A stretch of 64,000 nt of DNA from a virus (IMGVR_UViG_3300039076_000082:20956-84955); one strand, 5' to 3'. Positions 8,085 through 58,067 are shown, numbered from the stretch's first letter. Numbers and translations: made by a program. The notes: generated by a model not told the origin, from the letters alone.

Positions 8085-8113
8085 TTGACAGAATAATATA
8101 AATAAAGTATTAT
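8085..8113 (+). promoter_or_regulatory. sigma70-type promoter upstream of ncRNA candidate, tRNA-His and RNA ligase
   Basis: TTGACA-17 nt-TATTAT; predicted +1 near G8120. Confidence 0.75.
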
Positions 8114-8119
8114 CAATTT

Positions 8120-8211
8120 GTCTAGGTAAGAATATGATTTAGATCGGATTCGAGCCAAAAGAGAAGTTAGAGTATTGAATCATTCTCGTAAACAATACTT
8201 CCACCTAGACA
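8120..8211 (+). ncRNA. candidate structured RNA with paired ends and possible pseudoknot
   Basis: TGTCTAGGT 8119-8127 / ACCTAGACA 8203-8211; GAGTATTG 8170-8177 / CAATACTT 8193-8200; loop AATCATTCT complementary to AGAAT(AT)GATT 8129-8139. Confidence 0.5.
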
Positions 8212-8220
8212 TTTTATATA

Positions 8221-8295
8221 TCCGAGTTCGTTTATGTAGTAAGACGGGAGATTGTGATTCTCCTCAAAAGGGTGCAAATCCCTTACTTGGAACCA
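8221..8295 (+). tRNA. tRNA-His (GUG), non-canonical
   Basis: Full cloverleaf: TCCGAGT/ACTTGGA acceptor, GTTT/AGAC D stem, GGAGA/TCTCC anticodon stem with GTG at 8254-8256, AAGGG/CCCTT T stem, encoded CCA. Confidence 0.9.
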
Positions 8296-8307
8296 TTAAG
8301 GAGCATT

Positions 8308-9474
8308 ATGTCATTTAAAACTTGTTTCACTAAAATCTTAGCAGTTAATCCTCATCCGGATACTGAGACTACAGGATTAGATATCGCAACAGTTTACGGA
8401 TTTAACATTGTTGTGAAACGCGGATCAATGAAAGTTGGAGATATCGTTTACTATATCCCTATTGACTCAGTATTACCTCAAGATTTAGAAGAACTTATTT
8501 TTCCACCGACAGGGAAAGTAAAGTTATCAAATTCAAGAGTACGTCAAATTAGACTTCGTAAATTCCCATCGGAAGGTCTGTTAGTGGAAGCCGATACTAT
8601 CCACTCCTTCATGGTAGCACAAAGAGCTTTACGCCCACAAATTACTTCTAATGCGATGTTAGAGCAAGATACTAGCCATATTTTAGGTATTAAAAAATTT
8701 GAACCACCTGCTCCAAAAGAAACTATTTCAGGTAAACCTATTACTTCTAAAAAAAGATTAGCTGAACACCCTCAATTTCATAAGTATAATGGGTTAGATG
8801 CACTAAAATGGGGTAATCCTTTTACCGAAGACGAACAAGTATCTATTCAACTCAAAATGCACGGAACAAATGCTAGATTTGGTAAATTAGCAACAAAACC
8901 CAAAAACCTATTTCAGCGTATTTTGAACCTACTTAAATTATTACCAGAGTATGAGACTAGATACGGTAGCAACAATGTGGATATTACTCTTAAAAACGGC
9001 GCTAGTGGGTTCTACGACACTGACGTATATGGTACGGCTTTTAAAGCTTGTAATGCTGATACTAAAGTAAAAGAGAATGAGATGATATTTGGAGAAATTG
9101 TAGGTGAAGGTATTCAGAAGAATTACCACTATGGACACAAGACTCCACATTTTGTATTATTTGATGTCAAAGTATTTACTGATAAAAACGATTTAAAAGG
9201 TCGTTGGTTAACTCCTTCAGAAGTAGAAATTTATGCTAAAGAAAGAGGATTTGAGATGGTTCCTGTGCTATATAAAGGCTTTTATGACAAAGCTACTATG
9301 GAATCATTGATCTCAGGAGTAGATCCTTATTACCCTCCACATAAAATTAGAGAAGGTATTGTTATTAAATCTGAGAGTAACTATAATGATCCAATGAGTA
9401 GTGCTGGTAAGAAAGCTAGAAAGGTTATTTCACCAGAATACTTGGATGATAAGTCAAATACCGATTTACACTAA
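8308..9474 (+). CDS. ATP-dependent RNA ligase, DRB0094/Rnl5 family
   Basis: N-terminal HP...LDIATVYGFNIVVKRG...GD.VYYIPIDSVLP domain; motif I KMHG; motif IV EGIVIK; true start at ATG 8308 after AAGGAG (track start 8254 lies in the tRNA anticodon). Confidence 0.9.
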   Translation: MSFKTCFTKILAVNPHPDTETTGLDIATVYGFNIVVKRGSMKVGDIVYYIPIDSVLPQDLEELIFPPTGKVKLSNSRVRQIRLRKFPSEGLLVEADTIHSFMVAQRALRPQITSNAMLEQDTSHILGIKKFEPPAPKETISGKPITSKKRLAEHPQFHKYNGLDALKWGNPFTEDEQVSIQLKMHGTNARFGKLATKPKNLFQRILNLLKLLPEYETRYGSNNVDITLKNGASGFYDTDVYGTAFKACNADTKVKENEMIFGEIVGEGIQKNYHYGHKTPHFVLFDVKVFTDKNDLKGRWLTPSEVEIYAKERGFEMVPVLYKGFYDKATMESLISGVDPYYPPHKIREGIVIKSESNYNDPMSSAGKKARKVISPEYLDDKSNTDLH

Positions 9475-9484
9475 AGGATCAACC

Positions 9485-9658
9485 ATGAGTGAAATTATTT
9501 TCCTAACAATTTTCCTATTAGTTCAACTATTTGCTATATTTATCGCTTTTACTTTCAGTAAAGTTATAGCAGGACTATTGACTTTAGTTTGTTTACCGTT
9601 TATAGTAGTTTACTTAGGAGTTATCCTAGATAGGGGAAATAATAATGAAAACCGTTGA
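9485..9658 (+). CDS. small membrane protein (two TM helices)
   Basis: Hydrophobic; start corrected to ATG 9485 after AAGGA. Confidence 0.6.
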   Translation: MSEIIFLTIFLLVQLFAIFIAFTFSKVIAGLLTLVCLPFIVVYLGVILDRGNNNENR

Positions 9659-9833
9659 CCAATACATAGAAATGTTACAATACTGCTTACCTTACGATAA
9701 CAACGATATAGTAAAAGCTATTGAGTTCGGTAGACAATTAGCTCTACTTGAGGTAAAGTCTAAGTTGACAGGAATGGTTGTAAACGGTACAGTTAAAGGT
9801 GTAGTTACTGAGGAGCAGTTGGAGAAGTTATGA
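9645..9833 (+). CDS. hypothetical protein
   Basis: Overlapping packed ORF. Confidence 0.6.
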   Translation: MKTVDQYIEMLQYCLPYDNNDIVKAIEFGRQLALLEVKSKLTGMVVNGTVKGVVTEEQLEKL

Positions 9834-10039
9834 TTTTACAAGATGAAGAACAGTGTTTAGACTTTTATATTAGAGAATTTGATAGAAGTAATTTCACTCA
9901 CGTTAACGATACCAGTATTGGAGAAAGTGTATCTTATGTTATGTGCGAAGATATTTGTAATCTACTGAAAAAACTTAAAAATTCTAAACAAAAGATAAAA
10001 GAACTCGAAGAAGACTTATATTATTCTTATTACTTTTAG
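9830..10039 (+). CDS. hypothetical protein
   Basis: ATGA overlap, GGAG RBS. Confidence 0.6.
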   Translation: MILQDEEQCLDFYIREFDRSNFTHVNDTSIGESVSYVMCEDICNLLKKLKNSKQKIKELEEDLYYSYYF

Positions 10040-10042
10040 TAT

Positions 10043-56459: not shown

Positions 56460-56845
56460 TAAACTTTACCACCAGTAATCAATCCGTACAGTTCTTCTTT
56501 AGTCTTAGGTTTCTCTTTAGGCTTCTTATCTACTTTAATACCACGAATGATACAAAGATTCCTATACAACACATCAAACATATTAATATCGTCTTTAGTT
56601 TGAATCTCATTCATTACCAATTTCTTAACAGACTCAATAGCTTTAACGCAAATGTACTCTTCATCACTCATAGGTTGAGCTAGTAAATGAGACAGGTCGT
56701 TATCACGAATAATTTTCTGTAGACTAGCTACTTGTTTTTCGAGTTCAATAACAATAGCTCCTAAATCTTTATCAGGAGTATCTTGCTTACCTTCGAGGTC
56801 AAAAGAGTAGTCAACAGTTTCTTTGGATTCTTTTTTCTTAGCCAT
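56459..56845 (-). CDS. hypothetical protein, candidate terminase small subunit
   Basis: 128 aa immediately upstream of terL; position only. Confidence 0.4.
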   Translation of the reverse strand: MAKKKESKETVDYSFDLEGKQDTPDKDLGAIVIELEKQVASLQKIIRDNDLSHLLAQPMSDEEYICVKAIESVKKLVMNEIQTKDDINMFDVLYRNLCIIRGIKVDKKPKEKPKTKEELYGLITGGKV

Positions 56846-56851
56846 ATTACT

Positions 56852-57109
56852 CTATTCTAAATTTAATAAGTCTCTAAAATAACAGCTTAACTCTAAGGGA
56901 GCTGGCACTATTTCATAAATTCCAACATCGGCTAATTGTTCACAGTCAATAAAACGAAATAATTTCGTTTTAGTATTATATCTTAGTATATGACCAGATT
57001 TGAAAGTGATTGTAATGCTCTCACTTTTAGGATCTCTAATGCTAGAGATAGTAGCAACATAATCTATGTTTTTAGTAGAGTGTATATCTTTAATTTTATT
57101 TAATTCCAT
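56852..57109 (-). CDS. hypothetical protein
   Basis: 85 aa, AGGAG RBS. Confidence 0.65.
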   Translation of the reverse strand: MELNKIKDIHSTKNIDYVATISSIRDPKSESITITFKSGHILRYNTKTKLFRFIDCEQLADVGIYEIVPAPLELSCYFRDLLNLE

Positions 57110-57122
57110 ATTATTCTCCTAA

Positions 57123-57470
57123 TTAAAATTTTAAATTTGAAATATTAGTAGTCTTAAGTCCAACTACAGTCTGAACTTGTTGTTTAACAGCTTCATTTTC
57201 TTTTTTAAGCTCATCTAGCTTATGGTTGACTACTTCAACATGAGATTTTGCAAACTCATTTAGCTGATTTTTAAATTCTTGTAATTGTTTTTCAGTTTCT
57301 TGACGAATATCAGGTTGTTTATTCTCTTCCAAATAGGTTTTTCCTGCAATATAAGCAAAAGATAGTACTAAAGCTGTGATAGATACAGAAGCTGAAGCCA
57401 TTCCTGATAAAGCAACTGCTAAAATTGTTAGAAAAATGACTAGTGGATGATGTTTTTCAAATTGATTCAT
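57123..57470 (-). CDS. membrane protein (two TM helices and coiled coil); first gene of late operon
   Basis: Hydrophobic N-terminus, heptad C-terminus. Confidence 0.7.
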   Translation of the reverse strand: MNQFEKHHPLVIFLTILAVALSGMASASVSITALVLSFAYIAGKTYLEENKQPDIRQETEKQLQEFKNQLNEFAKSHVEVVNHKLDELKKENEAVKQQVQTVVGLKTTNISNLKF

Positions 57471-57482
57471 AAGACCCTCATG

Positions 57483-57500
57483 TATTATAGGTTAAATTTT
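57483..57500 (-). promoter_or_regulatory. late promoter motif copy heading the packaging operon
   Basis: TTAACCTATAATA. Confidence 0.7.
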
Positions 57501-57591
57501 GATGTAATAACTGTAAAATATTGATTTTTTATTAGATTTTACTGTAAAAATACTAATTTACATGATTTTTTACGATATGTCAACATTTTTA

Positions 57592-57620
57592 TTGACTATT
57601 TTACCAATATTGTGTATATT
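57592..57620 (+). promoter_or_regulatory. sigma70-type promoter
   Basis: TTGACT-17 nt-TATATT. Confidence 0.55.
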
Positions 57621-57626
57621 TTATAG

Positions 57627-58067
57627 TGATGCTTTATATCTTGGAGCATTTTGTAGTGTTACTATCCTCACTGTAGTCAAAAGGAAGTGGAGATCAAGAT
57701 ATCAAACCTAGAATTAGGGGCGATAGGAGCCGAAAGAACCAAGCTGAAACACGAATTGAGATGGGTAGCGAGGTCGAAGTAGGTATTCCGAGATATAGTT
57801 AGCAAAGAAAGCTCGACCATTAACTGTTCTTTTGTGTTTTCTCAGTCCTTAGCGGTGACAATAAATAATCTAAGGGTCTTGGTCTAGCAGTAAAGCTCTC
57901 GTTTGTGTTACTTGAACCAATGTTGGAAGTCTGTGTGGTAATAGTCACCGCAAATAGAACCCATCATAGACTTCTTATTGTCTTTTTTGAGCTAAGTATA
58001 GGAAAATATAGGAGAAGGTTTCATCTAAATTGATCCTTCATACGAAATACCTCGGCTTTAGATGAAA
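57627..58067 (+). ncRNA. candidate large structured non-coding RNA or structured leader
   Basis: ORF-free, GC-enriched; helices GATGGGT/ACCCATC, GGTCGA/TCGACC, GCGGTGAC/GTCACCGC, GAAGTCTGTG/CATAGACTTC, TTTCATCTAAA/TTTAGATGAAA. Confidence 0.5.

Follow-up and report, generated by a model that had tools for sequence, protein, structure and literature searches.

A predicted leader RNA linked to an Rnl5-type RNA ligase gene, and further orphan non-coding elements, in an IMG/VR virus genome

The healing and sealing of cut RNA, together with the provisioning of phage-encoded transfer RNAs (tRNAs), is an accepted phage counter-measure to host tRNA-cutting defences and an established counter-defence theme, with the Pnkp and Rnl1 enzymes of phage T4 as a described case (PMC7824862, which cites Burroughs & Aravind 2016). 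In the cited part of the account of the Runella slithyformis cluster (Munir & Shuman 2017, through PMC6097658), a two-domain HD-Pnk, which acts on 2',3'-phosphate and 5'-OH ends, is encoded adjoining an ATP-dependent ligase gene, and the cluster also holds Tpt1 and a methyltransferase-HIT gene. The Rnl5 ligases NgrRnl of Naegleria and DraRnl of Deinococcus join an OB domain to a nucleotidyltransferase domain, and NgrRnl seals 3'-OH/5'-PO4 nicks in duplexes (PMC4408790). Here we analyze a 64,000-nucleotide (nt) stretch of viral DNA, IMGVR_UViG_3300039076_000082:20956-84955 (the window), in which a predicted 92-nt RNA lies between a promoter and the genes for tRNA-His and an Rnl5-type RNA ligase. 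The source is an 84,955-bp IMG/VR virus record rated 100% complete, of which the window is bases 20956-84955; the genome has a GC content of 33% and the window a mean of 33.4%. The most similar cultured-phage DNA polymerase among 50,697 phage records is 27% identical, so the virus has no close cultured relative.

A preliminary description of the window had proposed that three islands free of open reading frames (ORFs), namely island 1 from 8120, island 2 from 10998, and island 3 from 57627 (positions are those of the window unless another contig is named), form one set of end-paired RNAs that phage enzymes might circularize. With slightly more confidence than doubt, we read them not as one system but as three things: a repair operon with a leader RNA and a tRNA, two lineage-specific RNAs, and a separate element at island 3. 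The enzymes and the tRNA are a known kind of phage RNA-repair module. As in T4, an end-healing enzyme and an ATP-dependent RNA ligase occur in a phage with tRNA genes nearby. Unlike T4, the healing enzyme is an HD-Pnk and not a HAD-type Pnkp, the ligase is of the Rnl5 type with an N-terminal OB domain and not an Rnl1, the tRNA and leader apparently lie within the ligase transcription unit, and the activity here is a predicted one. The HD-Pnk has the same two domains as that of the Runella cluster and likewise adjoins an ATP-dependent ligase gene, but that cluster is bacterial and no RNA gene is described for it in the cited part of the account, whereas here a phage carries a tRNA and a leader. 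The likeness of the ligase to NgrRnl and DraRnl lies in its OB and nucleotidyltransferase domains, although a significant alignment to NgrRnl (E about 1e-8) covers its N-terminal part only.

The ligase leader RNA and the repair operon

Island 1 runs in the order promoter, 92-nt RNA, tRNA-His, and ligase, with the HD-Pnk gene upstream beyond an HNH gene (Table 1). The 92-nt RNA is closed by an 8-bp helix, GUCUAGGU/ACCUAGAC (8120-8127 / 8204-8211). By scanning relatives for ORF-free gaps adjoining the ligase gene, we found leader RNAs in two further phages, L025 and L027, which are complete genomes of 84.9 and 84.4 kb with terminal repeats and whose ligases are 47% and 46% identical to that of the window. 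Both have the same layout, a TTGACA-17-TGnTATAGT promoter followed after 7 nt by an 87-88-nt RNA (L025:3887-3973 and L027:3885-3972) and then by the ribosome-binding site and ATG of the ligase. A 15-nt block, GGAUUCGA(A/G)CCAAAA, is common to all three leaders at 16-18 nt from the closing helix, and within it UGG-AUUCGAA-CCA makes a T-loop-type hairpin. In an alignment of the three leaders anchored on this block, the inner part of the closing helix, AGGU/ACCU, is invariant, while the four outer pairs covary between the window (GUCU-AGGU / ACCU-AGAC) and L027 (AGUU-AGGU / ACCU-AACU) or L025 (G(U)UC-AGGU / ACCU-GAC) and stay Watson-Crick. Because L025 and L027 were found by genomic position and not by a search for the helix, this covariation counts as independent evidence.

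Judged on its sequence, the 92-nt RNA is thus a putative new small leader RNA family linked to the ligase, and its conservation directly upstream of the ligase gene in two diverged phages makes it the one RNA of the window whose predicted link to the enzyme appears real. A gapped pattern scan of IMG/VR returned the L025 and L027 contigs plus two chance matches only, a looser pattern scan gave only chance or tRNA matches among the matches listed, and Rfam had no match at the leader site in the window, L025, or L027.

The tRNA-His gene, which did not appear in the preliminary description, is a cloverleaf scoring above the cut-off of the tRNA family RF00005 (tRNA and transfer-messenger RNA (tmRNA) genes were called with ARAGORN and RNA families with Rfam 15), and no more than 13 nt separate it from the ribosome-binding site and ATG (8308) of the ligase. 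Neither the full set of canonical elbow nucleotides (G18 G19; U54 U55 C56) nor the bacterial His identity (G-1:C73) is present in 8221-8295: the D-loop is without GG, the T-loop reads UGCAAAU with G at position 55, there is an A at -1, and position 73 is A. The tRNA-His of the complete relative G001 (L007:2898-2973) shares the A73 and the missing G-1 but has canonical loops. A73 without G-1 is at odds with the usual bacterial set of His identity elements and may hint at the histidyl-tRNA synthetase of the unknown host.

Genes for tRNAs also occur near the ligase in some relatives. L011 (ligase 62% identical) has a promoter, tRNA-His, and the ligase in that order; in L015/L016 (57%) an RlaP gene precedes the ligase, and tRNA-Asp(GUC) and tRNA-Pro stand immediately before that gene, some 1.3 kb upstream of the ligase; and G001 (49%) has tRNA-His about 4.8 kb upstream. 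A general adjacency of tRNA and ligase genes was rejected, as no tRNA lies in the 4-kb flanks of 16 IMG/VR ligase loci, so a tRNA beside the cassette is a trait of the closer relatives only.

Protein domains, assigned by Pfam, PHROGs, and PDB matches, bore out the HD-Pnk and the RNA ligase of the preliminary description. The HD-Pnk combines an N-terminal HD phosphoesterase domain and a C-terminal P-loop polynucleotide kinase domain in one protein, with PDB matches to the HD domain of CCA/A-adding enzymes and to the PNKP kinase domain. The ligase has the predicted Rnl5-type layout, an N-terminal OB domain followed by an ATP-dependent nucleotidyltransferase domain; its motif I lysine K183, H185, and G186 are invariant in 24 relatives, and its closest solved structures are NgrRnl, the best PDB match, and then T4 Rnl2. 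It has 511 detectable relatives, some of them named 'RNA ligase (TIGR02306 family)' at source. Of the three nucleotidyltransferases that had been counted, one passes its Pfam cut-off and a second is only sub-threshold (DUF6036, E 0.088), so that three are not reached; in place of two phosphoesterases, the phosphoesterase-type domains found are HD, Metallophos, and MazG, the last in a MazG pyrophosphohydrolase. As had been stated, HNH genes lie near islands 1 and 2, which they flank at 7420-8076 and 11989-12900; the former separates HD-Pnk from the ligase and is absent in L008/L009. The plus-strand non-structural block also holds genes for a ClpP-family protease and a trypsin-like peptidase (21341-23489), an arrangement kept in L015 and L020. 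The early region of L020, a syntenic relative with a metallophosphoesterase 67% identical to that of the window, has a TnpB-type gene (OrfB_IS605 + Cas12f1-like_TNB; L020:7943-9238), and the window has none.

Following the known logic of T4 Pnkp/Rnl1 and phage tRNA provisioning, island 1 would be the promoter-proximal part of a heal-and-seal operon, made up of a strong host-type promoter, the leader, tRNA-His(GUG), and the Rnl5-type ligase. HD-Pnk would heal the 2',3'-phosphate and 5'-OH ends left by host tRNA-cutting nucleases, the ligase would seal the healed ends, and the phage tRNA-His would stand in for a vulnerable host tRNA. The leader, which would have its first base buried in the covarying helix, carries a T-loop hairpin, and travels with the ligase gene, would most likely be a cis-acting 5' stabilizer or a regulatory operator that controls ligase expression. 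It is reasonable to propose that the helix, which starts at the first base of the predicted transcript, protects the end of the RNA. An RNase P cut at the 5' end of tRNA-His would free the leader as a separate small RNA.

Islands 2 and 3 and their relation to the enzymes

Several features that the preliminary description had ascribed to the three islands hold. Each begins 7 nt past the -10 element of a good, predicted sigma70-type promoter, and none contains an ORF of at least 55-60 aa. As read from the sequence, islands 1 and 2 both open with an end-closing helix of 7-8 bp containing CUAG, the one in island 2 being GAGCUAG/CUAGCUC (10998-11004 / 11185-11191, 7 bp). A perfect 7-bp partner 60-260 nt downstream exists for 2.2% of genome positions, so two such helices at predicted transcript starts exceed chance. 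Two other features stood in part. Against the window mean, GC enrichment is strong for RNA1 (the first RNA of island 2, below) and tRNA-His and moderate for island 3, but marginal for the 92-nt RNA and RNA2. The islands had also been called dense in complementary segments; in a fold test giving the minimum free energy (MFE) as a z-score against dinucleotide-shuffled sequence, the 92-nt RNA and the hairpin at the end of island 3 beat their shuffles, but RNA1, RNA2, and the island 3 domains do not. The idea of a single RNA set was not upheld, as blastn between the islands found no mutual sequence similarity. Relatives hold other promoter-proximal RNAs with a closing helix about 7 nt past a -10 element: an end-paired RNA at L012:1813-1945, closed by GAGAGAUA/UAUCUCUC between a promoter and the DNA polymerase gene, and an RNA of roughly 200 nt with a GC content of 40% at L025:330-628, closed by AGUGAG/CUCACU. 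Placing a helix at the first transcribed base seems to be a design that recurs in this group of phages.

Comparison with L022, a 99%-identical strain from another sample, shows that island 2 holds two RNAs. RNA1 differs from its L022 counterpart by one base. It contains a canonical T-arm, GAGG-UUCGAUU-CCUC (11035-11049), which is the sole part matched by the tRNA model (9.4 bits, E 4.8). Directly after it stands GGGUACU (11050-11056), which can pair with AGUACCU (11122-11128) 65 nt on, and a CAAC/GUUG hairpin follows this acceptor-like stem. If the acceptor-like stem forms, the elements would run closing stem, variable hairpin, T-arm, acceptor-like 7-bp stem, and D-like hairpin. This is the order described for the YrlA Y RNAs (RF02553) of bacteria and phages, whose end-paired stem surrounds a T-arm, then an acceptor-like stem-loop, then a D-like hairpin, and which are associated with RNA-repair loci (PMC4201824). 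RNA1 differs from YrlA in having no Ro60 gene among the scanned ORFs, Ro motif, or model match to go with it, in a 65-nt insert in the acceptor-like loop, and in a thermodynamically unfavoured fold: the YrlA-like constrained fold has -46.9 kcal/mol against an MFE of -51.0 kcal/mol, the acceptor-like helix has an ensemble probability of 0.004, and RNA1 is a single sequence without homologues for covariation.

Several identities for RNA1 were tried and rejected. Membership of YrlA was dropped, as RF02553 has no match at E<=10 in the whole genome; no TROVE/Ro60 protein occurs among the ORFs scanned with Pfam, and the Ro-binding motif GNCGAAN0-1G is absent from the 5' strand of RNA1, which reads AGCGAUG. 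For a permuted canonical tRNA, ARAGORN found nothing in the re-joined sequence at the normal or 90% threshold, and in the sequence as it stands it reported a permuted tRNA-like domain only at -ps80. An attP-type copy of the 3' half of a host tRNA was rejected because the T-arm/acceptor word is in no bacterial tRNA gene of 185,579 species genomes, and GUAGCG / GUAGGU as a family signature because the genome contains GTAGCG 32 times; only the 9-mer AGTAGCGCC is confined to RNA1 and RNA2.

RNA2 varies much more between the two strains. Window positions 11200-11364 are replaced in L022 by 533 nt (L022:4855-5387) comprising a GC-rich ORF-free stretch (L022:4862-5050), a 63-codon membrane-protein ORF, and a diverged RNA2, so that the region appears on sequence comparison to be a local hotspot of non-coding RNA turnover. 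Three blocks of RNA2 are identical in the window and L022 and are separated by unrelated segments. When the two sequences are folded to a consensus, GCUUUUC pairs with GAAAAGU and UAUUGA with UCAAUA, one U-A becoming U-G, and the variable segments are located at the apices. This comparison, of two sequences only, points to a stem scaffold with exchangeable tips. RNA2 might conceivably encode a small peptide instead; the two strains would then give 15 and 24 aa with a non-homologous middle, and the conserved blocks pair mutually.

Phage T4 makes two small stable RNAs of unknown function, species 1 and 2 (rnaC, rnaD), which are co-transcribed with tRNAs in a homing-endonuclease-rich region and released by tRNA-processing enzymes. 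We know of no link between these RNAs and a ligase gene, and their likeness to the island RNAs is by description and not by sequence comparison.

Island 3, which has no ORF of at least 50 aa, was compared across three lineages: the window (identical to L040), L039, and L041 (the same lineage as L042). Both -35 boxes and the -10 element are kept in all three, including the back-to-back minus-strand promoter of the terminase operon. The divergent -35 boxes (57583-57597) form an inverted repeat, GTCAA...TTGAC, whose 8-nt loop is inverted in L039 (CATTTTTA vs TAAAAATG). Positions 57217-58230 are 94% identical to L041, vs 86% for the adjacent coding genes, and the core (57700-57990) has about a dozen variable columns across the three lineages. 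Coding is ruled out at 57955 and 57983 by 1-nt indels between strains. Substitutions in the predicted stems are few, alter one side of a pair only (U-G to C-G, G-C to G-U), and prove nothing. Island 3 had no Rfam match and no homologue in G002 or G003. We read it as a probable conserved leader or regulatory element of the right-hand operon, lying between divergent promoters. Just past it, a 42-codon lysine-rich ORF (58250-58378) is identical in three contigs and is replaced by other sequence in L041/L042. The preliminary description had not included a fourth ORF-free island (62314-62806), in which two TG-extended promoters (11/12; 62703 and 62614) lead into the purine-rich minus-strand leader of the gene at 61951-62313 and which is partly kept in L041 (78% identity, with gaps).

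Homologues of the islands were sought widely. The islands had no match by blastn in the 50,697 phage records and no homologue by blastn in any of the fetched relative loci, and DNA searches of the complete relatives G001, G002, and G003 found no island homologue, RNA1 and RNA2 being undetected in each. Words taken from RNA1, RNA2, and island 3 and scanned for exactly in IMG/VR, JGI metagenomes, and GTDB genomes gave no homologue and one chance coding match. At the gathering threshold, Rfam 15 gave 0 matches in the window (the RF00005 score of the tRNA-His gene is given in Table 1) and at E<=10 chance-level matches only, and there were 0 matches in L025, L027, L012, and L022.

The preliminary description had tied the RNAs to the enzymes and had named a lack of co-occurrence as grounds for dropping the idea. 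For the 92-nt RNA the tie held, as it is kept upstream of the ligase in two diverged complete phages, but RNA1, RNA2, and island 3 were not found in the searched relatives that carry the enzymes, so for islands 2 and 3 the proposed tie largely fails. In L008/L009, the closest ligase relative (88% identical), HD-Pnk is followed after 134 nt by the ligase with no RNA or tRNA between them, and in the closest metallophosphoesterase relative (83% identical) no RNA lies downstream. RNA1, RNA2, and island 3 are best described as putative orphan non-coding elements, whose distribution gives no support for an enzyme link.

Table 1. Positions and properties of the features discussed, in window coordinates (GC, G+C content; z, MFE z-score against dinucleotide-shuffled sequence).
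Feature	Position	Strand	GC	z	Details
HD-Pnk	6404..7432	+			Pfam HD 8.6e-5 (residues 47-132), AAA_33 2.8e-16 (residues 192-329)
HNH / endonuclease VII-like homing endonuclease gene	7420..8076	+			phrog_1035, phrog_374, phrog_3118 (1.7e-16 to 3e-9)
Sigma70-type promoter	8085-8113	+			TTGACA-17-TATTAT; 11/12 consensus matches, best in 6000-13000
92-nt ligase-leader RNA (predicted)	8120..8211	+	35.9%	-2.4 to -2.6	8-bp closing helix at predicted transcript start; T-loop-like block GGAUUCGAGCCAAAA; z values -2.4 and -2.6
tRNA-His(GUG), non-canonical	8221..8295	+	44%		ARAGORN 8221-8292 plus encoded CCA; Rfam RF00005 42.3 bits vs 29-bit cut-off
RNA ligase, Rnl5-type, TIGR02306 family	8308..9474	+			Pfam PF09414 3.2e-21 (residues 177-359), PF21189 3e-10 (residues 8-93)
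Calcineurin-like metallophosphoesterase	10334..10966	+			Pfam Metallophos 5.1e-8
Sigma70-type promoter	10963-10991	+			TTGACA-17-TAAACT; 10/12 consensus matches, regional best
RNA1	10998..11192	+	46.2%	-0.2	195 nt, GC-rich (46%) non-coding RNA candidate
RNA2	11195..11392	+	35.4%	+0.4	Candidate second tandem non-coding RNA, or 5' leader of 40-codon membrane-protein ORF (11395-11517) and M15 peptidase
Pol-beta superfamily nucleotidyltransferase, PolyA_pol / CCA-adding-type head	15570..16448	+			PF01743 2.7e-5, 25 bits vs 23-bit cut-off; phrog_1614
Sigma70-type promoter	57592-57620	+			TTGACT-17-TATATT; 10/12 consensus matches, regional best; back-to-back with minus-strand promoter 57583-57555 of terminase operon
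Island 3	57627..58072	+	38.8%	whole -0.5; domains -1.5 and +0.5	Putative conserved non-coding element of ~445 nt, or long leader; ends in 16-bp hairpin
Hairpin ending island 3	58015-58072			-3.1	
Fourth ORF-free island	62314-62806	-	35%	+0.7	

Weighing the explanations

A number of points weigh against the reading of a repair operon with its leader, two lineage-specific RNAs, and an island 3 element. The promoters and transcript ends are predictions, and transcription, processing, and every function are inferred. The leader family is thin, with three sequences, two of them close to each other; apart from the closing helix, which alone covaries cleanly, the leader interiors fold differently, and a second inner helix can be drawn tentatively in all three but needs a register shift in the window. 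Leader and tRNA are both missing in 14 of the 16 IMG/VR ligase loci and in L008, L009, L010, L012, and L013, and since most ligase loci are without the leader, the ligase can do without it. Outside near-identical strains, no homologues of RNA1, RNA2, or island 3 were found; these three fold (island 3 as a whole) no better than shuffled sequence, and the case for their functioning as RNAs comes from promoter, composition, and local conservation only.

A competing account, possible at a fairly low probability, would have all the islands as plain 5'-terminal stabilizer leaders that guard operon mRNAs (those of the ligase, of the membrane protein and M15 peptidase, and of the right-hand early operon) from 5'-end-dependent decay, with no link to RNA repair. 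The 5' stem-loops of mRNAs are known to affect their stability. Island 1, RNA1, and island 3 each have a helix that begins at the predicted +1, a ribosome-binding site and a gene come after each island, and the same design stands before other genes in relatives, before the DNA polymerase gene in L012 and at L025:355-628. However, a stabilizer needs only a hairpin, which leaves unexplained the 15-nt T-loop block shared by phages with 46%-identical ligases, the T-arm of RNA1, and the stronger conservation of island 3 than of its coding neighbours, and as a tRNA lies between the leader and the ligase mRNA here, RNase P would detach it. In another account, the 92-nt leader and RNA1 would work in trans as tRNA mimics, serving as decoys, whether for host anticodon nucleases or for defence proteins that bind tRNA, or as Y-RNA-like scaffolds recruiting host Ro60 or repair factors. 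We think this rather unlikely. Both RNAs contain T-loop sequences, the predicted element order of RNA1 matches that of YrlA (PMC4201824), and the phage encodes a nucleotidyltransferase with a CCA-adding-type head domain; the YrlA of M. smegmatis, with its 7-bp acceptor stem, is cut by RNase P and has CCA added. Set against this are the failures described above, of RF02553 at E<=10, of TROVE/Ro60 among the Pfam-scanned ORFs, of the Ro motif (AGCGAUG in its place), and of the acceptor-like helix, whose probability is 0.004 and which lacks homologues in which covariation could be read.

It is unlikely that a hypervariable tRNA and homing-endonuclease region left islands 1 and 2 behind as debris, in the form of decayed tRNA fragments and mobile-element scars behind promoters. 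The flanking HNH genes (7420-8076 and 11989-12900), the 533-nt replacement or insertion inside island 2 of a 99%-identical strain, the lack of the islands in relatives, and the isolated T-arm and acceptor 3' strand of RNA1 would all suit such an origin. Debris would not, however, be expected to give a 92-nt RNA conserved with covariation across distant phages, an RNA1 with one base changed between strains while neighbouring genes carry more changes, or paired blocks of RNA2 that are kept while the apices change, and the T-arm/acceptor word of RNA1 matches no bacterial tRNA gene in the 185,579 species genomes. The proposal of the preliminary description, that HD-Pnk and ligase circularize or end-join the end-paired RNAs into exonuclease-resistant decoys or guides, found no positive evidence and strikes us as very improbable. 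Paired 5' and 3' ends in two RNAs, the genetic linkage between the ligase gene and the 92-nt RNA that three phages show, and the precedent of archaeal ATP-dependent RNA ligases that circularize small RNAs such as C/D sRNAs (the cited part of PMC9014305) speak for it. That precedent concerns the Thermococcus Rnl, whose kinship to the phage ligase is not established by the cited part, and the closest solved relative of that ligase is the nick-sealing NgrRnl. The enzyme chemistry, as far as it follows from PMC4408790 and the cited part of PMC6097658, also fits poorly: a primary transcript has its 5'-triphosphate at the helix terminus, which is neither a nick nor an HD-Pnk substrate. Moreover, neither a bulge-helix-bulge nor any other motif for processing came to light, co-occurrence with the enzymes is lacking for islands 2 and 3 in the relatives searched, and the closest HD-Pnk-ligase relative is without an RNA. 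Finally, RNA1 and RNA2 as the two pieces of a permuted tmRNA with the tag GAFHIDVQAGK is an account we regard as largely refuted and scarcely credible. ARAGORN calls a permuted tmRNA at 10970-11360 at 80% of its normal threshold, the tag frame of L022 stops at the same codon (GAFHIDVQAES, then stop), and the phage encodes a ClpP-like protease; yet ARAGORN finds nothing at 90% of the threshold or above, the Rfam tmRNA families (RF01849; cmscan E<=10) have no match, the acceptor stem has U3-A70 and not the G3:U70 required for alanine charging, GAU and not CCA follows the discriminator base, the P2-like pairing consists of four G-U pairs, the tag is without a hydrophobic C-terminus, and in L022 a further RNA and a 63-codon ORF lie between the two 'pieces'.

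The division into a repair operon with leader and tRNA, two lineage-specific RNAs, and an island 3 element is thus the reading that we favour. Under it, island 2 would encode two lineage-specific small RNAs, RNA1 bearing a T-arm and the domain order of a circularly permuted tRNA mimic and RNA2 a scaffold. The islands other than the leader extend the list of orphan phage non-coding RNAs and lend no support to a new circular-RNA system. The leader matters more widely. An RNA that has a T-loop and a covarying helix and is kept beside ligases with an identity as low as 46% may offer a handle on how repair genes are regulated and on whether dedicated RNAs take part, be it as operator, stabilizer, or tRNA mimic. 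A candidate RNA partner would also be valuable for the Rnl5-type ligases themselves, as the literature that we found on them names no natural substrate. We tentatively entertain the possibility that phage Rnl5-type ligases have a dedicated partner in the 92-nt RNA and its family, either as an operator whose binding by the ligase or by a tRNA-damage signal would tune synthesis of the repair enzymes, or as an RNase P-released cofactor or decoy that mimics the substrate. If this is true, and if RNA1 too proves to be a permuted tRNA mimic of the YrlA kind, several tRNA mimics would be fielded by the phage around its repair enzymes.

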